The notes under the pieces were generated by a model. The model worked only from the letters and a program-made list of their open reading frames with translations. It was not told the origin of the DNA and did not search any database. A DNA stretch of 64,000 bases. Source: a virus. Its lineage: Duplodnaviria > Heunggongvirae > Uroviricota > Caudoviricetes. The DNA is taken from the IMG/VR virus record IMGVR_UViG_2579778606_000002, positions 1-64,000 of that record, one strand, 5' to 3'. Both the position numbers and the translations under genes were made by a program. Of the stretch, positions 26,601 to 63,969 are shown one piece after another (within the stretch, counting starts at the first letter, position 1; each line of letters starts with the position of its first letter).

Positions 26601-27527
26601 ATCCCAAAGGACGTTTGCCGATTTGAGTGTTGAATCATCCGTGTCGGGGATCATCTCCTGGAAGGTTTCCGGGTGTTTACGCAATACCCATACGTCCACC
26701 ACGGTATCTGTACCGGATTCGCTGAACGTACCAGAAGGCATACGATGCGCGCCCAAAAATTCCGCTTTACGGCTGACTTTATCGCGCAATTTTTTGTATT
26801 TCGTACCATCGGTCATGCCATTCGGCACCACCAATACAATTAGTCCACCAGGCTTAACCTTGTCGATCGTGCGCAGCACAAAATAATTGCCAACGTTCTT
26901 CTCGTTTGCATATACCGGATCAAGCCCGGCGACGCCGGAACGCCCTTCGCCAAACGGTACGTTACCAACTGCGTGGTCATACATTGCATCTTTCGCCGCC
27001 AGCGCCTCAAACGCCCCGATATTCACATCATCTTCCGGGTGCAAAAGCTGGTTTATTCGACCGGAGATCGGAGACAGTTCGGCGCTGGTCATTATCATGC
27101 CCTGCCGTTTTGTCTCCTGGAAAATACCTGTGCCTGCTGACGGTTCCAGTATGTGACCGCTATCAATACCGTAGTCGCCGAAGAGATCCCATATACCTTC
27201 TGCCATAAACTGTGGCGTGTAGTATTCGTATTGGCTGCCCTCACCATCTGTCAGGCCGCCTTCACCGGTATACCCGGCAAGAATCTGACGCTGTTCGTCA
27301 GTTAATTTCGCTCCATCGAAGCCGGGCGGAAGGGAATTAAGAAGATCTACTGCGGCGTTGTTTGCTGTCCGGCGTGTTTTCTGAATACTGACGCCATCGA
27401 CTTTCTTAACGCCAAAGGTCACTACAGCTCGCGGTTTATGCAACCGACTAACAATTTCAATCAGCGCCCCAATGCTGGTGGCCTGGCTAATTGAATCAAT
27501 TATTTTGTCCAAAGGAAGCCCCCTCAA
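20676..27527 (-). CDS. darB: DarB-like antirestriction protein: N6-adenine methyltransferase plus SF2 helicase fusion
   Basis: 2283 aa; MTase motif I LEPSAGTGIF and motif IV-like GNVPFG; helicase Walker A GFGTGLGKTTT and DEGH box; size matches P1 DarB (about 2255 aa); start codon at 27527 is TTG. Confidence 0.75.
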   Translation of the reverse strand: MRGLPLDKIIDSISQATSIGALIEIVSRLHKPRAVVTFGVKKVDGVSIQKTRRTANNAAVDLLNSLPPGFDGAKLTDEQRQILAGYTGEGGLTDGEGSQYEYYTPQFMAEGIWDLFGDYGIDSGHILEPSAGTGIFQETKRQGMIMTSAELSPISGRINQLLHPEDDVNIGAFEALAAKDAMYDHAVGNVPFGEGRSGVAGLDPVYANEKNVGNYFVLRTIDKVKPGGLIVLVVPNGMTDGTKYKKLRDKVSRKAEFLGAHRMPSGTFSESGTDTVVDVWVLRKHPETFQEMIPDTDDSTLKSANVLWDTFLKGKWFTTEGKRFVYGDMERTSFRNTLVVKKDGRVSNESMKTALSRRFESRINWDLLGVTTQAWQGAKVGDKRLVGGIWHEFDGLQWVKDATTKSSVLDVSRYGVSTFGDLQIAFQSTNGILALSWDQISAIASDYPSVVSDEVAAMIRFAGKQREKDRERVMRGALIGQLINKALDLRNLGVNVDDKLADASRLAAAEVAKYGPPHAIKLNGLAEAGAKNWMTFTGNVKQDGSTSDLLAGRLDVTDGAAGIDFTRPEQVIAHLFSDVALNPITLGDFREAFAGELPEDDDAALEYLAKFDDIAIDGYGCLLPMDRATSGDIATKTALLMGWRDASTGEQKANFERQLAKIEEKRIFTPLNKVTVNLNARWLDRRLIKEFLAEQGYDEFKYTEPDLKVVDGILVSPDDYEGKDGVFTGYQLRTVNGKNGNEFKKANNKDGFLNQLENYLNGVKPRGQNANEYLDKIAQLEVSFNDWLRTHPQADQIARDYNDAFNGFIPFTHSDAPLGLEGISGKRIPLTYQNEEVRRLSEDGRGIMGFGTGLGKTTTALALEAYNFETGRTKRTCIVVPKAVYQNWYHEAQSFYSADAFANMMFIGLDEVRDDSGNILTAPVLDENGEPRLDSNGQPLTRNVVKESSSAVIVQRMNMIPSSNWRTVIMTKEQFASIPLREKTIEENSQQAVFNAVEMGRLDLASGKHRDAQKKNKIKDQAANTGTTKKQNIPYFEDMNFDSVIADEGHNYRNSFNAGREAGQLAYLPNPAVSKMARDMAVKAAYMMKRNNGRGVVMLTATPLVNSPIDAFNMLSTVIPQEEWMRMGIITPDDFVRVFGKTATVQVQKISGEVEEKQGLVGFQNLDGLRGIFHRWTTLKTAADVGATVKIPDIIENTLQIPMTGEQETAYEELRKRAQELSRNDELTVDENGHITNDKPDDFIFSIIRDMDKVAIDPDLYASAITFQFPVELADQVKAIADALPKVAGGKVADDVDEAEEDGAGGLVSTRTSKVVKTAFSEHPTHVEIRASIELEAEILKAIAAAGIDMQQVSHPIPPKYAALIENLREGLKNGKQIVFIDEKAQHQKLRRIIASALQMPEQEIGIINATTVSQAGGIKLKKVNKPTEPTPNKNGEYKEGAWETYYSKLAQYEDYLSAKNDAGLEGMEGIAADYNEGRTRIIICNKKAEVGINLHIGTTDIHHLTLPWTPASIDQRNGRGARVGSPQEKVNVHYYCGKGTFDDFRLDTLKRKKDWIKMVMTSDMSEIANGDADDADERAIMLAANPEERRAIMARQAQEREERLKLKAQREANNALDIYLKAANAAGKDIGMMETELKSAMEQIEYYQRNLDDLIKAGTNRNGQKYALEQLSSYRKRARVLRFAITRAKDADTIMKRSRGDVERAIKSGVLDISIDVIQNPQEYMRTDKNILLHKGSYYRAVIDDRETTAIVRVEKIDGEKAQYLCRIAWLDRASRYARAPGSIVTLPFDSVIEAVTFEEGVAESRATAARGVQCHQLSTILTRDQFYDAIRNGVMNVIAGKPGNAWGGGSAIKYWAYRTDDGQIALSSAYDGVIGQKIGRASDIAPERWIYPDGNDEALKREVAKIQASDNPLNIVDGEGFLQALYGYDYTQGMQAWGAQATMDDVAQEFENWMAGRGLSGRSLNKVTSEDILSLFRKPSGEGLESFWRTVLAYRLFQGRMKAFSNIDDIERMFNQVKIAKIKAKIEKTRSALVAWRDALFEQYKSLSDADGWAALEQLANNGVDGAKLAIVKADNPLESPAAQWIKVGAVINAFDEKHISKDDFADAVSVNRLVEMATRRARELKDGDYVNELPDALKSATWQDYVSLKNGGATESEIAERLEQAESKREEQAAVAEARADEAANDDYIIVVNDKPIRAKARVRGRWWSVSEDVGAVYLIADQPGSSTIRNAKDAIKKIGGRFWNFEANPVADVNFDRPAWMVSTRYSVDELRKIIADAA

Positions 27528-31538: not shown

Positions 31539-32537
31539 TCACATCCTCTTAGACACAAAGATCAGCGGAGTCACCGTCTTGTTCTCTTTCACCGGTATTT
31601 CTTGTTGTTTATTGGCTGATATTGGCAGACCATAAGTGGCATTAGCCCCCAGGGATTCAAGCATCGCTGCGACAATGCGTGCATCATCCTCTGACTGCAT
31701 ACGGCAGAGCGCCCGGCGCTGTTCTGCGCTGATAAAAACAGGCATTTCCTGGATAGCATCACGCAAAATACGGCGGCATTTCTTCGCGTTCTCCCCCTGG
31801 CTTTCCATCATCGCGGCCTGGTCGCGTAGTTTGTCGCGAAGCTGCATATTTTCCACTTCAAGATGTATCAGTTCCGACTCCAGAACTTCACGTTGTGCTG
31901 ATTCGAATATGGCTTGCTGACTCTTCATTGCTGAAAAGTGGTGAACCAGATCCGTAGCAGCATTATCGGTAAAACCTTGTTCGATAAGTGCCGCATGAAT
32001 CGCCGCGTCGCGTTCTTCTGCTGATTCAAGCATCAGGCTTTTCTTGTCGAGGCTGATATAGTTAGGCACAGTTACGTAATCAAAACCGTGAAAAGACTTT
32101 ACCAGGGATACAGAGTAATCTGGACCAGATGTAGCCCATGACCAACCACCTGCGCCAGAATTAATCATACCCTGAACAATACGTCCGGTGTCCGTATCCA
32201 GTATTTCCTGTGTATGGGTAACAATGCCGTTGTCGTCAATTGAAATGTCGATAGTCCTGTTTGACGGCACGTTCTCCAATACAACAGGCTTCCCATCTAC
32301 CATCACAACAGAGACTTCCGGCAAGTCCAGGCTTTTCGTTTTGTTATAGTGCATCGCCCGGCGACCATGACCGTAATAACCATACATCTCACCCAGTGCG
32401 ATACGCTCTTTTGTTTCTGGCGAGTTGAATGTGTCTCGTACCGACTGGATAACGTAATTGCGATTGTTCTGAGGTGTGTGTTTGCGGATTTTCTCTACCA
32501 GGGAGAAGCGATCCGTAACGGTATTCAGTGATTGCAT
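31539..32537 (-). CDS. hypothetical head-morphogenesis protein (possibly Pro-like protease/scaffold), 332 aa
   Basis: Follows a portal-sized gene; central coiled-coil segment; assignment by size and order only. Confidence 0.35.
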   Translation of the reverse strand: MQSLNTVTDRFSLVEKIRKHTPQNNRNYVIQSVRDTFNSPETKERIALGEMYGYYGHGRRAMHYNKTKSLDLPEVSVVMVDGKPVVLENVPSNRTIDISIDDNGIVTHTQEILDTDTGRIVQGMINSGAGGWSWATSGPDYSVSLVKSFHGFDYVTVPNYISLDKKSLMLESAEERDAAIHAALIEQGFTDNAATDLVHHFSAMKSQQAIFESAQREVLESELIHLEVENMQLRDKLRDQAAMMESQGENAKKCRRILRDAIQEMPVFISAEQRRALCRMQSEDDARIVAAMLESLGANATYGLPISANKQQEIPVKENKTVTPLIFVSKRM

Positions 32538-34236: not shown

Positions 34237-34419
34237 GAGTCACCGCGAAATGTTTTCAGTTTGCGGCAGCATAGTCAGTATGTGATTTTTGATGATGGAT
34301 CTTTTCAACTAGAAATATTGGCTGGCCCCTCTCGTAACAAAGTGAAGAATAAAACTTGAATATGCACATTGTGCGTATTAAGATTAAAAAAGTTGACCAC
34401 TTTGCTGCGGAGAAATTCC

Positions 34420-34722
34420 ATGAAAAGCTCTTTAATTAACTCCAAATTACACCAACTTGCTATCAAAAATCGAGTTCCTGCATGGTCGGTTTACATGCAT
34501 ATCAGCCACGCATGTCTGAGCAATGAAAACATTTACAATCTGCAAATTCTAAGCCGGGAAGGCAGGACTTTGTTTAGCGTTGCAGAGGATTCCTATAAGG
34601 CCTGGGATATGCTGGATGACGCGTTAAGCCAATACGCGCAAACAGAAGAATGCCAAAAAGAATGGGCCAGGTACTGTGATGAAGGGATGCCATGCTGCGG
34701 TCTGTTCGGCGCAGCTCTGTGA
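34420..34722 (+). CDS. hypothetical 100-aa protein upstream of HTH gene (candidate toxin partner)
   Basis: ATG at 34420 with GGAG 7 nt upstream (ORF track start 34369 is TTG). Confidence 0.4.
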   Translation: MKSSLINSKLHQLAIKNRVPAWSVYMHISHACLSNENIYNLQILSREGRTLFSVAEDSYKAWDMLDDALSQYAQTEECQKEWARYCDEGMPCCGLFGAAL

Positions 34723-34734
34723 ATCGATTCAACG

Positions 34735-34998
34735 ATGATATACTTCGTTGCGAATCACAGCATTGGCAAAGGGCATATTGTGAAACAACTCCCACCAAAC
34801 ACCCCGGAAACCATAATTGAAATCCGCCAGCGAATGGGGCTAACGCAAACGGAGTTAGCCCACAAAATGGGGTATCAACTCCGGGCTTGGCAATTCAAAG
34901 AAGATAGAAATAAACCGAGACGCCTTATGGCTGGTGAATTTGAGTACCTGTTATTGCTTGCTGGAGAGCATCCTGAATTTATTCTTACACCACGCTAA
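34735..34998 (+). CDS. XRE-family HTH DNA-binding protein, 87 aa
   Basis: HTH motif MGLTQTELAHKMG; small size typical of antitoxin/regulator. Confidence 0.5.
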   Translation: MIYFVANHSIGKGHIVKQLPPNTPETIIEIRQRMGLTQTELAHKMGYQLRAWQFKEDRNKPRRLMAGEFEYLLLLAGEHPEFILTPR

Positions 34999-35032: not shown

Positions 35033-35326
35033 TCAATTCACATCAATGTCTTGATATGATTCGCCAGTATCGTCTTCGTCGTCAGGATCTCCTTCCACCT
35101 CTGGCCACTCAACCTCCCAGCCAACAGTTTCCAGGCTCCGCAGAACAAACACCCCATCGGCATGAATGGTATTCACGATCCCCATTGCGGAATTTGTGTT
35201 GATAAAGCGTAAATCTTGCGCAATATTTTCTTCCGAAATATCGCCTTCAAATATACGCAATGTGCCGTCATCAGAGCATTCAACAATCCCTCTAATCCCA
35301 GCGGGACTCACAATGCTATACTTCAT
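35033..35326 (-). CDS. hypothetical acidic protein, 97 aa
   Basis: Last gene of Dar-like operon; acidic C-terminus. Confidence 0.4.
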   Translation of the reverse strand: MKYSIVSPAGIRGIVECSDDGTLRIFEGDISEENIAQDLRFINTNSAMGIVNTIHADGVFVLRSLETVGWEVEWPEVEGDPDDEDDTGESYQDIDVN

Positions 35327-38300
35327 TTTGCAACTCCTTCATACATCCCAAGAAAAATTCCAGCACGCCGTCATTGTTTAATACAGAGTTAGTCGCCTGC
35401 TCAGGATCGGCATACATCTGCAAGGCCATAGAAAAAATCTCAGTCGCCCTGCAATTGCTTAATGCAGGTGGCTTTGATATAAATCTGCCGCTGACAGAAC
35501 TTACCGTATTTTCCATATAAATTTTAGACATATATCCATGACTTAGGTCGGTTCGCACCAAATACTCAGCACTGCCACGGCTACCAATATTATGATAAAA
35601 AACTTTACCGTTAGTTTTTGATTTAATGAAGGCTTTGGCCCTCTCCAATAGATGGGGATTTGAATGTTCTATATGGTGACCTATTTCATGCCATAATACA
35701 CGCTCGTGATCACTATTAGCATCAATTGTTATATTCCCATTTCGACTTGCAAAAGCACGAACATTGTTCTTGTGGTTAATATTTTTTAATGTAGATAAAG
35801 TCCCTCCTGAAATAATATAGGCTTTTTCAATTGTCTCGCGAATACTGTATGCTTTACGGGAGAAAGTTTCATTATCGTGACCACTTAACTGCTCTGCTTC
35901 ATCAGAAATAGCAATCCCACGACTCCATTCCTTAGACTGGTCATGTGACACATTTGACGATTCAAGAATCATGTCAAATGCGGCTCTGACTTTTTTATGT
36001 ACTACATTTTCAAGCGCATTAGGATAGGCTTTTTGTCCACGTGTTAATGAAGCTATTTCATATAATTCTGCTTGCAAGTCTTCCGGTATGTCCAGATTAA
36101 AAACAAGCATTTTTTTCAGTTCATATCCAATCCCATGATCATTCTGGTGCAAAACCTCAGCAAGGTAGTCAGTGAGTTTTTCCTTATTTGACCTAACTTT
36201 ATTGATTTGTTCTATAGTAAAGTCAACGCGCTCCTTGATTCCGTAATATGAGGAATGCTCTGCTAATTCCACTATCTCCTTAAGCCTGACAAGTGTCTCA
36301 ATATACGCATCAGCGATCTCCTCTGCCGTTAGTTCGGAGCTAACTCCGACGCTGGCTGTTATTTCCCTACCAGCCGCCATAATATCGTTGATATTATGCA
36401 AGCTCTTTTTGAATAACTTCAAAGTATTTTGGATTATGCGCACCATCTCTTCTGCGCTTCCAGCTTTATTCATTTCCTTTCTAAATCTTAAAGCTGTTTT
36501 CTCTGCAATAGACGCTGGAGATTTTAAATAGTTACCTAACCAAACAAGACAACCATTGCGCAATTCATCAATGCTAAAGTCATCAGGAATATGTTTTGCT
36601 GCATTATGTAAAACACGTATAAATTGTTCAGCGGGCACGCCTTCTTCTGACATATTGCAAAACGTTTCAATGTCACAATCAATATTTCTTTCATCTGCGA
36701 GTGAAGGAGCTTCATCTCCTTTTTCAATCGCGTCACGCAGTGCGTTAGCATAAAAATTGCTGCGTTGATAAGACAATAACATCGTTGTTAACACAGCGTT
36801 GCTGTATCCATAACGTTTAGCCCACGCCTTAATCTCATTAACGGTGACATTGCGAATATAAAAACCAAGTTCCAAAAATACATTGCGCTTTATTTTTTTT
36901 GCGGACTCCTTAATTTTTTCTGACGCCTTCACGATTCGGATCAAGTCCTCCACGCTGGTCGCATCAGCAATTAGCTTTGAAATGTATGGTTCGACATCTC
37001 CCGAAACCGATTCGAACATGGCGAAATTAAGCCCTTTACCTTCGCCATACTCAGCCTCAATTTCATCAGAAACGGCAGATAAAATGCTACGCAGATCGAC
37101 ATCTCCGCCGCCGAACATATCGCCTAACGCTTGTTGCTGGTGAATAAGTTCATCGTTAATTTTTTGCGCCAGTTTCTTGAAAGCTGCCCCCATTCGCTTA
37201 GCGCTTCGGTTGTTGGCAACAATAAACAGAGCAAGCGCTTCTGCTTCCGGAGTGCTATCTCCAAACAATCCACGCTGTGCGATCACCTCTTCTACTGCCT
37301 GACCGTTATCTTTTGCTTCACGAACAAGGTTAATTGCTTCCTGTAGCGCGGCAATAGCCTGTTTATCCAGACCATTCAATTGCTCTATACCGTCTACCAG
37401 TCCGGTTACCGTGTCATGGTGAACATCACCTGAAAGCGACTGCATTTGCGCAAAATCGCTGGCTGCCGTATTTAATGCGGTAAGGATGTTACGCATTTCC
37501 GGATCTGGCTCTTCCGCCACCAACCGAACAAGCCTTTCATCCTTGTACGCTTTGGCAAAAATTGCATTCTGGATGCGGTCGATAAGTTGTTTCGTTGGAC
37601 GCCCATCGGCTGTAAGCAAACCTGCCGTCGCCGTATCACCTATTTCGCGCAAAAACGCACGAATAAACGCATCATTGGACCGCGCCAGTAGATTCCCATC
37701 ATCTGAAGGATTAAATAGCGCCATGACGCTCTCAGTGAGAAATTGCGCATCCGCATACGCTTTTTCACTTGCAGCCATCTCTTGCAGATCGCTGATGTTT
37801 GAATCGCGGGCGAACTGCGCACGATCAACATCAGTGAGTCTTTCGCGCACCAATACGGGCATAGACATTTGTGAAATGTCGTCAGGATTCAGACCAAACT
37901 CTTTTGCATGATCGATCAGGTACTGGCGATATTCATCCGCCTGCCCTTGCTCATAGGCACGCCAGATACCCATGCTCCTTCCGTTGCCGGATTCAACAAC
38001 GTTGTCCGGACCAACTATCGGCGCTCCGTGGCTGCTCATGCCGGAATCCGTTAATTGTGCCGGGCGTAAATTGGAGGCAATACGGTTAACCTGGAGTTTG
38101 CTGGATAGCCGTGTACGGTCACGTGGCTGGAGTTCTTCCGGGAAGGCCGGATTAATCGTACCGTCAAGGTTGTTCGAAATGATCAGACTGCTGGCATCAA
38201 CGACCTTAAAAGCCGTCTTTACCTCTGCCCCTTTACTGGTGACTACGTAACTACTGCGCCCCTGGCGTGTTTCTCGCCTCTCTAATGAAGAAACCAGCGC

Positions 38301-38357
38301 AATAACACTGTTAATGTCTGCTGCTTCGGATAGCGCGGAAGTAACTGACTTGTTCAA
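35316..38357 (-). CDS. ddrB: large Dar-cluster protein (DdrB-like) with C-terminal HExxH zinc-metallopeptidase motif
   Basis: 1013 aa; LWHEIGHHIEH about 124 aa from C-terminus (nt approx 35672..35695); position after darA/ddrA-like genes. Confidence 0.5.
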   Translation of the reverse strand: MNKSVTSALSEAADINSVIALVSSLERRETRQGRSSYVVTSKGAEVKTAFKVVDASSLIISNNLDGTINPAFPEELQPRDRTRLSSKLQVNRIASNLRPAQLTDSGMSSHGAPIVGPDNVVESGNGRSMGIWRAYEQGQADEYRQYLIDHAKEFGLNPDDISQMSMPVLVRERLTDVDRAQFARDSNISDLQEMAASEKAYADAQFLTESVMALFNPSDDGNLLARSNDAFIRAFLREIGDTATAGLLTADGRPTKQLIDRIQNAIFAKAYKDERLVRLVAEEPDPEMRNILTALNTAASDFAQMQSLSGDVHHDTVTGLVDGIEQLNGLDKQAIAALQEAINLVREAKDNGQAVEEVIAQRGLFGDSTPEAEALALFIVANNRSAKRMGAAFKKLAQKINDELIHQQQALGDMFGGGDVDLRSILSAVSDEIEAEYGEGKGLNFAMFESVSGDVEPYISKLIADATSVEDLIRIVKASEKIKESAKKIKRNVFLELGFYIRNVTVNEIKAWAKRYGYSNAVLTTMLLSYQRSNFYANALRDAIEKGDEAPSLADERNIDCDIETFCNMSEEGVPAEQFIRVLHNAAKHIPDDFSIDELRNGCLVWLGNYLKSPASIAEKTALRFRKEMNKAGSAEEMVRIIQNTLKLFKKSLHNINDIMAAGREITASVGVSSELTAEEIADAYIETLVRLKEIVELAEHSSYYGIKERVDFTIEQINKVRSNKEKLTDYLAEVLHQNDHGIGYELKKMLVFNLDIPEDLQAELYEIASLTRGQKAYPNALENVVHKKVRAAFDMILESSNVSHDQSKEWSRGIAISDEAEQLSGHDNETFSRKAYSIRETIEKAYIISGGTLSTLKNINHKNNVRAFASRNGNITIDANSDHERVLWHEIGHHIEHSNPHLLERAKAFIKSKTNGKVFYHNIGSRGSAEYLVRTDLSHGYMSKIYMENTVSSVSGRFISKPPALSNCRATEIFSMALQMYADPEQATNSVLNNDGVLEFFLGCMKELQNEV

Positions 38358-38450
38358 AATACACTCCCCTTACATAGAAAGCAGGAAGTGTAAAAAGTGT
38401 GTGATTTATGGACTTACAGGAAAGTGAAAGGGGCATTTCAGCCCCTTTGA

Positions 38451-38819: not shown

Positions 38820-40744
38820 TAAGCACCTCCCTGCTGAATTTCAGCCAGAATGTTGATCAGGTAGTCAACTGCTGCGCCAACCGTTGCTTCGTTCTCGTCA
38901 TATCGACCAGCACTGATAAGAGCGTTTGCAGCTTCCTGCACATGATCAAGTTCAGCACTTATGACCGTCAGATCGCGGGATGTGAACTGCTCCGGAACGG
39001 ATTTCAGGTACTCAAGCGCTTTATCTGCTTCCTGGTCAGCTTCGCTTGCTGATTCACCCGCTTCTTCTGGCTCCGGCTCCTGTTCTGGTGCTGGTGCAGG
39101 TTGCGATTCTGGCTCAACTACAGGATCTGTTTTTACTTCGCTTGAATGATTTTGAAGGGCGTTATACACGTCCATAATGAAAAGGTTCTCCCCATCACCA
39201 AGTGGATATGCCACGTTCGGGAACGCTTTGCGGAAAAGAATTTTAACTTGCGCCTTGAATGTTTTCAGGTCACTTCCAAACAGATCTACATAGCCATCAA
39301 TATGTTTTACCATGCTGGACGCAACCAGCTCGTTCGCCATCCCTCTCAGTTCATCGTCATCAGGCAGATAGCGTAATTCGTACTGACTGACTTCTTCGTC
39401 TGTCAGTTTGCGGTCATACGTAATGATTCCGTGACGAGCATATTCGTAATACGGATCAGCCTGATCAGGACGGTCAAGTACAGCTTTATTTCCTTCAGGA
39501 ACCGCACCAACACCCGCCGGGCGAGATTGTAGCGCATAGCGATATTTACCAACCTCCAGGGGATCAGGATGTGATGCTGGTTGTGGCTCCTGTTCAGGCT
39601 GCGGCTGATCAGTTGGCTCAGGCTGGCCCGGCAACACATCCACTTTGTATTGATCAGCATTATGTTCACGATAGGCTTTAAGTAATTTGGTTGCAGCGTC
39701 CGCTGAACTCCCACCTTTAACAGCACTGACATCAATACTGAAATTGCCTTCTGGTGCCTCAATCGTGACAAAGCTATCACTGCCTGACGTGACATACTTA
39801 ACTACAGCACCATTATCCAGCGTTGTTTGGCCTTCTGTAGCAAGATTATGTTTTATGTGTCGCAGTTGATCATTGAAGGCACGCTCTTTAGTTCCTTGGC
39901 TCTTAGCTGACAATAAATTATCGCGCTTAGCCTGCAATTCCGCGTTAAGGGCTTTTTGTGCGTCTAATTTATTCTGCATATCATTGAGTGTTGAGCGTTT
40001 CTCTGCCAGCCCCCGCTGTGCGTCTTCAACCTGCTCAATCAGCACAGAACGTTCTTCTGCCAGCTTGTCGGCTTCATTGAGATACCCCTCAATATCAGCC
40101 TTCATTTTGTCCTGGCGCTCCTTTGCTTTTTTGAATTTTGCACTGTTACGCTCAATGAGGTTAGAAAGCGCCTGACACACCTGGCTCAGAGATACATCAC
40201 GCCCACCGATTGGCGCAACAACATGCGTAACGTTTCTTTTGTTAAGAAGAAACTGAAACGCAACCAGCTCGTCATCCCCTTTAATTCTTGTGCCGTCTGC
40301 GGTTGGAGAATGGAAAATTATGCTTGTCGTTTGTCCATCGGTTAGAGGTATTTGTGCTGTTACAACAGGGATATTAGCAACCCGGCGCACGCGCCCAATG
40401 ATTGCCCCACCGATACTATTACGTCCGTCTTCATATTCACCTGCCTCATCCGTACCCGCAGCAATGTCAGTGCCATTCAGGCCGCGATTAAGCGCCCGGA
40501 CAAATGCTCGCATTGTTTGCGCTAACCGCAATTTTGTTGTGGTTAAAGCTTCGAACATTGCCTCATTGGTAGTTACCAAAATTTCGTTGCCCATATAGGC
40601 CAGCTCGATATCTTCCAGCGTCGCAGGCTCGATAAGTAAATCATCCTCGGTGATATCTTCCGCCACCCAACGATTAGGCGTATATCCAGTGAGCGTATCT
40701 GCAAAAGTGGACTGGATATTTATTCGAATAGGTTTCTTTATCAT
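38819..40744 (-). CDS. darA: DarA-like antirestriction/capsid-internal protein precursor
   Basis: 641 aa (P1 DarA precursor about 639 aa); coiled-coil centre, Pro/Glu/Gln-rich linkers; operon order hdf-darA-ddrA-ddrB. Confidence 0.5.
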   Translation of the reverse strand: MIKKPIRINIQSTFADTLTGYTPNRWVAEDITEDDLLIEPATLEDIELAYMGNEILVTTNEAMFEALTTTKLRLAQTMRAFVRALNRGLNGTDIAAGTDEAGEYEDGRNSIGGAIIGRVRRVANIPVVTAQIPLTDGQTTSIIFHSPTADGTRIKGDDELVAFQFLLNKRNVTHVVAPIGGRDVSLSQVCQALSNLIERNSAKFKKAKERQDKMKADIEGYLNEADKLAEERSVLIEQVEDAQRGLAEKRSTLNDMQNKLDAQKALNAELQAKRDNLLSAKSQGTKERAFNDQLRHIKHNLATEGQTTLDNGAVVKYVTSGSDSFVTIEAPEGNFSIDVSAVKGGSSADAATKLLKAYREHNADQYKVDVLPGQPEPTDQPQPEQEPQPASHPDPLEVGKYRYALQSRPAGVGAVPEGNKAVLDRPDQADPYYEYARHGIITYDRKLTDEEVSQYELRYLPDDDELRGMANELVASSMVKHIDGYVDLFGSDLKTFKAQVKILFRKAFPNVAYPLGDGENLFIMDVYNALQNHSSEVKTDPVVEPESQPAPAPEQEPEPEEAGESASEADQEADKALEYLKSVPEQFTSRDLTVISAELDHVQEAANALISAGRYDENEATVGAAVDYLINILAEIQQGGA

Positions 40745-62379: not shown

Positions 62380-63969
62380 CTACTTTTTTTCGTTGATTTG
62401 CCCGCTCAACATGTCAATCGCACCTTCTTTCGAACGTGTCAGGCGAAGGCGAGTGAAATAGTTCTCACCGTTGCGCGGATGCACATCGTTGATTGCTGTA
62501 CCCCAAAGAGTGGTGCGGTTTACCAGGGCTGGATTTGTTTCGTGGACATACGGAATAGCAGGCACAGCATCACCAGCGACCAGGCCAGCTTTACCAATGC
62601 CTTCGCCACGACCATAGAAGTAGATGTCGTCCAGGCCAAAGTCGTAGCCATGTTCCTGGAATTGTTTGCAGATAGGCTTCGGCACTTCGTAGATACGAAT
62701 GGAACCAAACAGGGTGCCGATGTATTGAATGTACGGCGACTGTACATAGCCCGGTGCCAACTGGAAGTGCTGCGGCGGTAAGGAACGCAGGAAGTTAGCA
62801 GCATCGCCACCAGCAAAGCCACCACGGATACCGGTAGTCAGGGTGCGGTCAGCCATGTCCTGTGACAGCGCGTTCACTACATGGCGAATTAAACCAACCC
62901 ACGATTCGTAGTTCTGCGCTTCTGGCAGTGCCACATCAAATTTACGACCGTAAACTGTGTGGAATACCAGAGTGCGCAGGCGCATCATATCGATTTCGTG
63001 GGAAATCCAGTTGCGCATTGCGGAGAATTGCAATGCTGCCAGTTCGAGTCCGTGTTCACGGCTCAGGTCAGATGCTGTCATAACCGTATGTTCGGATGCG
63101 ATCACGTACTGCGACGGGCGCAGGGCGTAATTGCGCATGGACTGGTTAATGACTGGTATCAGGCTCGGATTGCGTTCAATGTTGATTTCAACCTGAACAG
63201 CGATTTCTGTGCCTTCTGCTGGTGCTTCATTAAAGGTGATATCGATAACGCCGGTATCGTATTTAACTTTTGCTGTAGCAGAGAAAGAGTTGCCGTTGAC
63301 GTCTTTGTCGTTGAAATACAGGTTGCCGTCACCATCATCTACTTTGGACGGTTTGCGGTTAATCAGCAGTTTGTTGTAGCCCTGGCGCAGCGGGCAGGCC
63401 TGGCCTTCGAAGTTCTGGATATCAAACTGGAAGGTGGTTTTGCTGCCATCGCCTTTTTCGGTCAGGATGTACAGGCGTTTCATCTGCGAATACACGCCAG
63501 CAGACTGCATGTTCAGTTCATCGCCCTGCTCGAATGTACCGAATTTTGTACCAGCAACGTTGGTCAGCTCGTAAATATTGGTTTCATCACGATCACAAGG
63601 GATAAACGTACATGCGTCGCTGGTGGCTGCGCCGAGAGAAGCAGGCAGGATCAGTGCGGCATATTGTGCAACCTTCATTACACCATCGGAGGTGCGCATG
63701 TCCTTGGCTACTGATTCAAACATGGCTTTGCCAGCGCCTTCATGCGTCTCTTTAGCGGACTCCATCATCAGGCGCTCAAGTGCTACATGGGCGTTGGCTA
63801 ATACATCGCTTGCCGGATAATGCCCATGCTGGCGTTTGTATTCATGAATAGACATGGCCCAGCTACCAATAATCTGGCGAGCTGCTTCTGGTCCAACGCC
63901 TTCAAACATTGGCTCTTTCTGGATAGCTTTTTCCAGGTTAGCCATCATCACTTCGTTGTCGGTAATCAT
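62380..63969 (-). CDS. putative major capsid protein (P1 gp23-like), 529 aa
   Basis: Size and position next to sheath gene; assignment by synteny. Confidence 0.4.
   Translation of the reverse strand: MITDNEVMMANLEKAIQKEPMFEGVGPEAARQIIGSWAMSIHEYKRQHGHYPASDVLANAHVALERLMMESAKETHEGAGKAMFESVAKDMRTSDGVMKVAQYAALILPASLGAATSDACTFIPCDRDETNIYELTNVAGTKFGTFEQGDELNMQSAGVYSQMKRLYILTEKGDGSKTTFQFDIQNFEGQACPLRQGYNKLLINRKPSKVDDGDGNLYFNDKDVNGNSFSATAKVKYDTGVIDITFNEAPAEGTEIAVQVEINIERNPSLIPVINQSMRNYALRPSQYVIASEHTVMTASDLSREHGLELAALQFSAMRNWISHEIDMMRLRTLVFHTVYGRKFDVALPEAQNYESWVGLIRHVVNALSQDMADRTLTTGIRGGFAGGDAANFLRSLPPQHFQLAPGYVQSPYIQYIGTLFGSIRIYEVPKPICKQFQEHGYDFGLDDIYFYGRGEGIGKAGLVAGDAVPAIPYVHETNPALVNRTTLWGTAINDVHPRNGENYFTRLRLTRSKEGAIDMLSGQINEKK

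Follow-up and report, generated by a model that had tools for sequence, protein, structure and literature searches.

Introduction

The DdrB protein of phage P1 (YP_006491.1; 995 aa) is the prototype of the polyvalent proteins that combine a DdrB-type ParB domain with a C-terminal "MPTase" metallopeptidase domain (PMC5512222). Its peptidase motif has been known from the P1 genome annotation since 2004 and from the polyvalent-protein literature since 2017: the P1 reference record describes ddrB as "unknown protein function; possible metallopeptidase," the record of phage JL22 calls it a "putative metallopeptidase," and Iyer et al. (2017; PMC5512222) described the C-terminal MPTase of P1 DdrB and proposed that the protein is autoprocessed to a 76-kDa form before packaging. 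P1 ddrB is nonessential. Here we analyze the ddrB ortholog of a 64,000-nucleotide (nt) stretch of viral DNA (Caudoviricetes; IMG/VR record IMGVR_UViG_2579778606_000002, positions 1 to 64,000; this whole stretch is referred to below as the window), which is a D6/P1-like phage-plasmid with a D6-like backbone and carries the gene within its Dar (defense against restriction) cluster. An earlier, sequence-only reading of the window had pointed out an HExxH zinc-peptidase motif in this protein and named no described catalytic function for DdrB; the zincin interpretation is supported by our results, and such a function had been proposed, so that the peptidase, already predicted for P1 DdrB, is not new. 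The value added here is evidence for DdrB as a two-module polyprotein cleaved by the prohead protease Pro, namely a conserved junction motif at which Pro would separate a ParB module from a helical/peptidase module.

The T4 prohead protease gp21 cleaves the capsid protein and internal proteins behind the Glu of hydrophobic-x-E sites. P1 Pro matches T4 gp21 by HHpred (99.4%; PMC9024508), and the motif described below, hydrophobic-hydrophobic-E↓S/A (the arrow marks the cut), resembles the gp21 type of site, although the predicted cut in DdrB would divide a polyprotein into its two modules instead of trimming off a short targeting peptide. A second useful comparison is ArdC of plasmid R388 (PMC7213743), the one characterized polyvalent-protein MPTase and likewise an antirestriction protein that is encoded by a mobile element and accompanies the DNA. 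Its C-terminal gluzincin MPTase combines an HExxH with a Glu on the glutamate helix and a conserved Tyr, and no substrate is known for it. The window protein (1013 aa) shares with P1 DdrB the ParB domain, the junction motif, and the signature HExGHxxE...E...Y...TExxS, and the two genes have the same neighbors in the order hdf-darA-ddrA-ddrB-hxr, down to an 11-nt overlap with hxr. The window gene nonetheless differs from that of P1 in coming from another lineage, that of the D6-like backbone, and D6 itself has a truncated gene of 454 aa.

The Peptidase Domain of DdrB

The sequence LWHEIGHHIEH occupies aa 888-898 of the window protein (nt 35664-35696), and the HEIGH within it ends up 123 residues from the C-terminus (Table 1); the sequence-only reading, which had put the motif at about 35672..35695 and some 124 aa from the C-terminus, was right as to both motif and place. 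This is the one HExxH in DdrB, against 0.04 expected from composition. A homolog search with the C-terminal 205 aa alone gave 3 close matches, and the full-length protein was used as the query instead. The motif stands in register in all homologs longer than 700 aa that bear the C-terminal region, with both His and the Glu conserved in every aligned C-terminal region. R867, H890, E891, G893, H894, E897, E931, Y942, E973, and S976 are invariant in an alignment of 70 C-terminal regions and once more in 38 curated domains, and Y947 is 99% conserved; all of the invariant residues but R867 were also scored as unchanged in 69 homologs. H895 (H/F/M) and H898 (Y/F/H) vary, which leaves H890, E891, G893, H894, and E897 as the conserved part of the 11-mer. 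A profile of the domain matched 6278 cluster representatives at E<=1e-3 among 1.84 billion proteins. In 135 distant representatives taken from the best of these, with 149 domains in all, the signature R...HExxHxxE...E...Y..GKxY...TExxS was 96-100% kept. Among the profile matches the domain is fused to the Mu-F minor head protein, to an ADP-ribosyltransferase, to the Mu portal plus a pyrophosphatase (InPase), and to LPD3; proteins with these fusions are phage polyvalent proteins.

Structure prediction gave a zincin-like fold. The HExxH falls inside a predicted helix (885-899) that is preceded by three strands, the overall fold is similar to that of solved zincins, and E973-x-x-S976 opens the next conserved helix, in keeping with the gluzincins, whose third zinc ligand is the Glu of an (E,H)xx(A,F,T,S,G) motif on the "glutamate helix" (PMC7213743). 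The nearest structural relatives of the domain are sequence-specific endopeptidases, followed by M1 aminopeptidases, Wss1, astacin, thermolysin, and other zincins. Conservation of the motif among homologs and a zincin-like fold were the two points on which the sequence-only reading had been staked, and it withstands both, since the motif is conserved and the predicted fold is that of a zincin. Judged from the alignments and the model, the HExxH is thus the active-site helix of a genuine zinc metallopeptidase domain of the gluzincin type, which is well conserved and spans aa ~790-1013. Its predicted metal site is H890, H894, and E973, with E891 as the predicted general base; R867, E897, E931, and Y942/Y947 are further candidates for the pocket. 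As the ortholog of P1 DdrB, and with the domain found in multidomain phage proteins, it belongs to the large MPTase group of phage polyvalent proteins (Iyer et al., 2017), in which a zincin domain is part of a multidomain phage or conjugative-element protein that enters along with the DNA; one phage-type clade of the group has an acidic residue at the position equivalent to E897 (PMC5512222).

No Pfam peptidase family matched at E<=1 with the whole protein or at E<=0.1 with the C-terminal 244 aa, and there is no named PHROG model for the peptidase domain. The lack of a Pfam, NCBIfam, or named PHROG model explains both the label "hypothetical protein" on most copies and why the sequence-only reading did not connect it with a known domain. 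Membership in MEROPS M34 (anthrax lethal factor and the Pro-Pro endopeptidases, PPEP; Pfam ATLF) was considered and rejected, since the domain has no Pfam or PDB sequence or profile match there and the likeness is one of fold only. Identity to the M34 proteins and to MtfA (M90) is 9-15%, again with no Pfam or PDB sequence match, and the DdrB clade differs from both in the extra invariant residues R867, E897, and E931 and in a variable beta-rich insert between Y947 and E973.

A Predicted Pro Site Between Two Modules

DdrB appears to be a head-internal polyprotein with a ParB-like N-module (aa 1-449) and a C-module (aa 450-1013) that comprises an all-alpha domain and the peptidase, the two joined by a disordered linker. 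The full-length AlphaFold model has a pLDDT of 83.8; its segments below 50 are aa 1-3, 320-326, and 441-452, the last of them being the longest, and residues 457-835 are modeled confidently as all-alpha. PF18763, the ddrB-type ParB domain, is the sole Pfam match in the protein (142.4 bits, against a gathering cut-off of 27.6). Conservation is very strong in the N-module, where many alignment columns as far as F448 are invariant; it is moderate in the peptidase, and the region in between differs from lineage to lineage. Elsewhere the N-module is joined to other C-terminal halves, including InPase (e.g., in Vibrio) and PBECR2.

The linker carries the sequence AMFE↓S. A six-frame translation of the 64-kb window contains AMFE[SA] three times, against 0.034 expected (Poisson P = 6e-6), and all three occurrences lie in head genes: those for the major capsid protein, DarA, and DdrB (Table 1). 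The capsid protein site is homologous to the maturation site of P1 gp23, E120↓S121, which has been mapped by Edman sequencing (PMC9024508) and which we located as AMLE↓SVAAEM at aa 117-126. The wider pattern [LM][LFM]E[SA] is found in P1 exactly once each in gp23, DarA, and DdrB and is absent from DdrA and Hdf. The P1 DdrB site is GLFE↓SVSG, after E441. The P1 DarA site, DLLE↓AISS, follows E68 and adjoins the first residue visible by cryo-electron microscopy (cryo-EM); residues 1-69 of P1 DarA are missing from the cryo-EM map, and ~9 kDa of the protein is removed by Pro (PMC12810830). N-terminal sequencing had left the P1 DarA cleavage site undefined, and we predict it after E68 in P1 and after E65 in the window; the DarA proteins of six lineages keep the site at aa ~63-68.

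All 93 homologs in which the anchor could be recognized have the junction motif, (M/L)(F/L)E↓(S/A), and among them are ParB-InPase proteins without a peptidase. A Vibrio P1-like plasmid carries the same class of motif in its capsid protein (MMME↓S, aa 120-123), in its DarA-like and DdrB-InPase proteins, in the portal protein, and in Pro. The C-terminal half of Pro contains five hydrophobic-hydrophobic-E↓S/A motifs, which are probably self-cleavage sites. The hydrophobic-hydrophobic-E↓S/A consensus is the probable Pro site in the capsid protein, DarA, and DdrB alike. Since the AMFE↓S of the linker is also the maturation site of the capsid protein and the site in DarA, it is Pro, and not the zincin, that most likely separates the DdrB modules inside the prohead; the simplest reading of these sequences is that Pro cuts DdrB at E449↓S450. 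The sequence-only reading had supposed that the peptidase might process Dar components or a host defense factor. The former is not favored, because DarA and the DdrB junction carry the capsid-protein maturation motif and so point to Pro; a host protein is a possible target.

Distribution and Probable Packaging of the C-Module

D6 and most D6-like plasmids encode the N-module only, so that the C-module, with its peptidase, appears to be accessory cargo. In PLSDB the peptidase domain occurs in 514 plasmids and the N-module in 638. Of 118 PLSDB plasmids with a DNA match to the window gene, only 4 have ddrB at full length, and the C-terminal half of the window protein, at 99% protein identity or higher (97-99% by DNA), was found in 4 PLSDB plasmids only. 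The truncated alleles of DdrB stop 4-5 residues past MFE (two examples are given in Table 1).

Mass spectrometry of P1 virions gave 59.5% coverage of DdrB (PMC9024508), which is more than the share of either predicted P1 fragment alone (44% and 56%), so that both halves of DdrB are probably packaged in the virion. A helix motif, ATS[IV]xxLIx[IL][VL], was observed at aa 16-26 of the window DarB (nt ~27450-27482), at aa 466-476 of DdrB just past the junction, and at aa 10-20 of P1 DdrB, with a looser version at aa 12-24 of the window DdrB; the strict motif has two six-frame matches in the window, at the DarB N-terminus and at the start of the DdrB C-module. This could be a head-targeting or docking helix, an idea that is weakened by the reported tolerance of P1 DarB for deletion of residues 11-30.

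Possible Roles of the Peptidase

We favor the reading in which a genuine zincin resides in a Pro-cleaved, two-module DdrB, with the C-module packaged, injected, and acting in trans, and as a whole we judge this somewhat probable. With Pro making the cut between the modules, the zincin would not be needed for it. The C-module would then stay in the virion and be injected with the DNA, and the injected peptidase may act in trans on a host or co-injected protein; these last two steps are put forward more tentatively than the cut. A more elaborate version, which we consider possible but doubtful, is that the C-terminal product of 560 residues is an injected effector, consisting of a lineage-variable helical targeting domain and an endopeptidase like those of lethal factor and PPEP, restrained or chaperoned by the neighboring Hxr-like protein, that would cleave a specific host protein of defense or regulation as infection begins, with the processing of DdrB reassigned from the zincin to Pro.

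Of the other explanations, a chance HExxH with no peptidase domain around it can be set aside as next to impossible: the motif is a short one, about half of its occurrences in proteomes lie outside known zincins (PMC3650047), and no curated family model matches here, yet the conservation and the predicted structure already refute it. The published proposal, based on the reported 76-kDa processed form, is that the substrate of the zincin is DdrB itself, cut in cis or by another DdrB molecule and before or after packaging, solely to free the ParB-containing fragment (Iyer et al., 2017). Polyvalent proteins commonly have an MPTase domain as a hub, and in them the release of modules is a natural need, and natural variants with the N-module only would require no releasing peptidase. 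Against this, the sole conserved junction motif is the maturation site of the capsid protein and DarA, it is retained in the ParB-InPase proteins that have no zincin, and the C-module showed no further conserved linker or motif. D6, also without the zincin, keeps MFE in its DdrB and an AMFE↓S site in its DarA. Taken together, these features make autoprocessing unlikely in our view.

It is less likely again that the zincin is an in-head processing enzyme that trims other Dar proteins (DarA, DarB, Ulx) or further head proteins while the head is being assembled or afterwards. DdrB is certainly well placed for such a task, being internal to the head, packaged after DarA, Hdf, and DdrA and before DarB and Ulx, and reported to aid the incorporation of DarB, and DarA is known to be processed; however, the conserved DarA site has the Pro motif, the literature attributes the cleavage of DarA to Pro, and D6-type phages possess DarA and DarB but no zincin. 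The fold might instead be kept as a scaffold for binding or packaging, with peptidase activity irrelevant to antirestriction. ArdC offers a precedent, in that its E229A mutant still overcomes HsdRMS and no substrate has been found for it (PMC7213743), and so does the N4 virion RNA polymerase, whose MPTase-containing region is needed for encapsidation (PMC5512222). All the catalytic residues of the DdrB domain are nevertheless invariant across thousands of diverged sequences, which argues for selection on chemistry beyond the fold, and we rate a non-catalytic role as slightly more improbable even than in-head trimming.

Several points weigh against the combination of a genuine zincin, a Pro cut, and action in trans. 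Foldseek of the domain against the PDB returned no significant match, and searches of Pfam, NCBIfam, PDB sequences, and PDB profiles left the domain uncovered by any match. The searchable literature holds no biochemical data for any DdrB, and no experimental test of its peptidase or of its autoprocessing, so that zinc binding and activity are deduced. Only the P1 capsid-protein site has been mapped experimentally, and the Pro cut in DdrB is read from sequence; the cited 76-kDa form of DdrB (Iyer et al., 2017) fits neither of the predicted P1 fragments, of 47.9 and 60.9 kDa. The packaging argument assumes that coverage was computed on the full 995 aa of P1 DdrB, and the supplement of PMC9024508 contains no DdrB peptide map. 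By analogy with the ArdC mutant, which still counteracts restriction, a role as a trans-acting effector would be far from assured.

If Pro does cut DdrB at AMFE↓S, the published rationale for the zincin, autoprocessing, falls away, and a widespread family of phage-head peptidases (>6000 cluster representatives) would be left without an assigned substrate, which points toward an injected proteolytic effector. Should the effector reading prove true, DdrB would be a proteolytic anti-defense effector delivered from the phage head. From the junction motif there also follows a simple, testable rule for locating Pro sites in P1-like phages, which is of use where P1 is to be engineered for protein delivery.

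The ddrB Locus and Its Neighbors

The first 1334 nt of ddrB (5' end) are 95% identical to phage D6, and the window protein is 44% identical to DdrB of P1/P7 over aa 4-1011. It matches PHROG 2299 over its full length (E = 0, aa 12-1012), and its assignment to that family rests on this similarity together with its position after hdf-darA-ddrA. The genes upstream encode, in order, Hdf, DarA, and DdrA (by PHROGs), in synteny with D6 and P1; those for the portal protein, Pro, and RepL lie downstream. Features of the locus are collected in Table 1.

Table 1. Features of ddrB, its product, and related sites (window coordinates unless another locus is named; the arrow marks a predicted or homologous cut)
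Feature	Coordinates	Strand	Remarks
ddrB ortholog	35316..38357	-	1013 aa; TTG start; GGGGAG Shine-Dalgarno
N-module, ddrB-type ParB domain and conserved helical region	37011..38357	-	aa 1-449
ddrB-ParB domain PF18763	37839..38234	-	aa 42-173; Pfam E = 9.8e-42
Flexible inter-module linker	37002..37037	-	aa 441-452; pLDDT <50
A446-M-F-E449-S450, predicted Pro cleavage site in linker	37008..37022	-	cut E449↓S450
All-alpha domain of C-module	35991..36989	-	aa 457-789; confident fold, sequence varies between lineages
Predicted zincin (gluzincin) metallopeptidase domain	35319..35990	-	aa 790-1013
HEIGH (H890-E-I-G-H894), two predicted zinc ligands and catalytic base	35676..35690	-	on predicted helix 885-899
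E897, invariant acidic residue three positions past second His (HExxHxxE)	35667..35669	-	
Y942, invariant tyrosine, candidate transition-state stabilizer	35532..35534	-	by analogy with ArdC Y255 (PMC7213743)
E973-I-F-S976, ExxS "glutamate helix" motif, predicted third zinc ligand	35430..35441	-	start of helix 974-980
hxr-like gene	35033..35326	-	97 aa, very acidic; 11-nt overlap with ddrB; AAGGAG Shine-Dalgarno
DarA A62-M-F-E65-A66, predicted Pro site	40547..40561	-	cut E65↓A66
Major capsid protein AMFE↓S	63712..63726	-	homologous to P1 gp23 maturation site E120↓S121
pro, prohead protease	31539..32537	-	synteny with D6 and P1 pro
Truncated DdrB of D6	D6 locus L001, 12001-13365		454 aa, ending SMFE-PTSVG-stop; followed by unrelated small reading frames orf24 and orf23
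Truncated DdrB of a plasmid	locus L002, 4501-5862		453 aa, ending SMFE-NSHR-stop; portal gene directly next

The hxr-like gene, the P1 counterpart of which lies at 745-1053 of P1 locus L004, is translationally coupled to ddrB, and its product is 42% identical to P1 Hxr (E = 1e-19). In four other lineages with a peptidase-bearing ddrB, the stop of that gene is adjoined or overlapped by an acidic open reading frame (ORF) of 100-121 aa, with a common motif, G[WF]x[VFI]xWP. The Hxr-like ORF is absent where the C-module is absent, and its linkage to the peptidase is not seen at a 617-aa member of the family that is not a DdrB. The Hxr-like protein may serve the peptidase module as a partner, an inhibitor, or a chaperone. 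Pfam finds no helix-turn-helix in the Hxr homolog, and the P1 label "homolog of Xre" looks doubtful.

An ImmA/IrrE-like protease (M78, COG2856) with an Xre substrate was considered for this gene pair and rejected: DdrB has no M78 match, Hxr has no helix-turn-helix by Pfam, and the XRE-like ORF nearby lies on the opposite strand. That ORF (34735-34998, plus strand, 87 aa) is weakly XRE/HTH_3-like, and its counterpart in plasmid NZ_CP117014 is annotated as an XRE family regulator; together with a second plus-strand ORF (34369-34722) that has no family match, it sits between the hxr-like and portal genes.

On the other side of ddrB, between the ddrA stop and the ddrB start, there is a GC-rich hairpin, aaaggggc-tgaaat-gccccttt (38425-38447), whose stem resembles that of a terminator or attenuator and has no clear T-run. 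The product of pro carries the label "tail fiber protein" both in PHROG 1801 and in the product field of P1 RefSeq (NC_005856), which looks like a propagated mis-annotation. Finally, an antisense ORF of 141 aa (37486-37911, plus strand) lies inside ddrB, placed much as "iddB" is in the P1 annotation; the conserved N-module sequence may simply give rise to it as a by-product.

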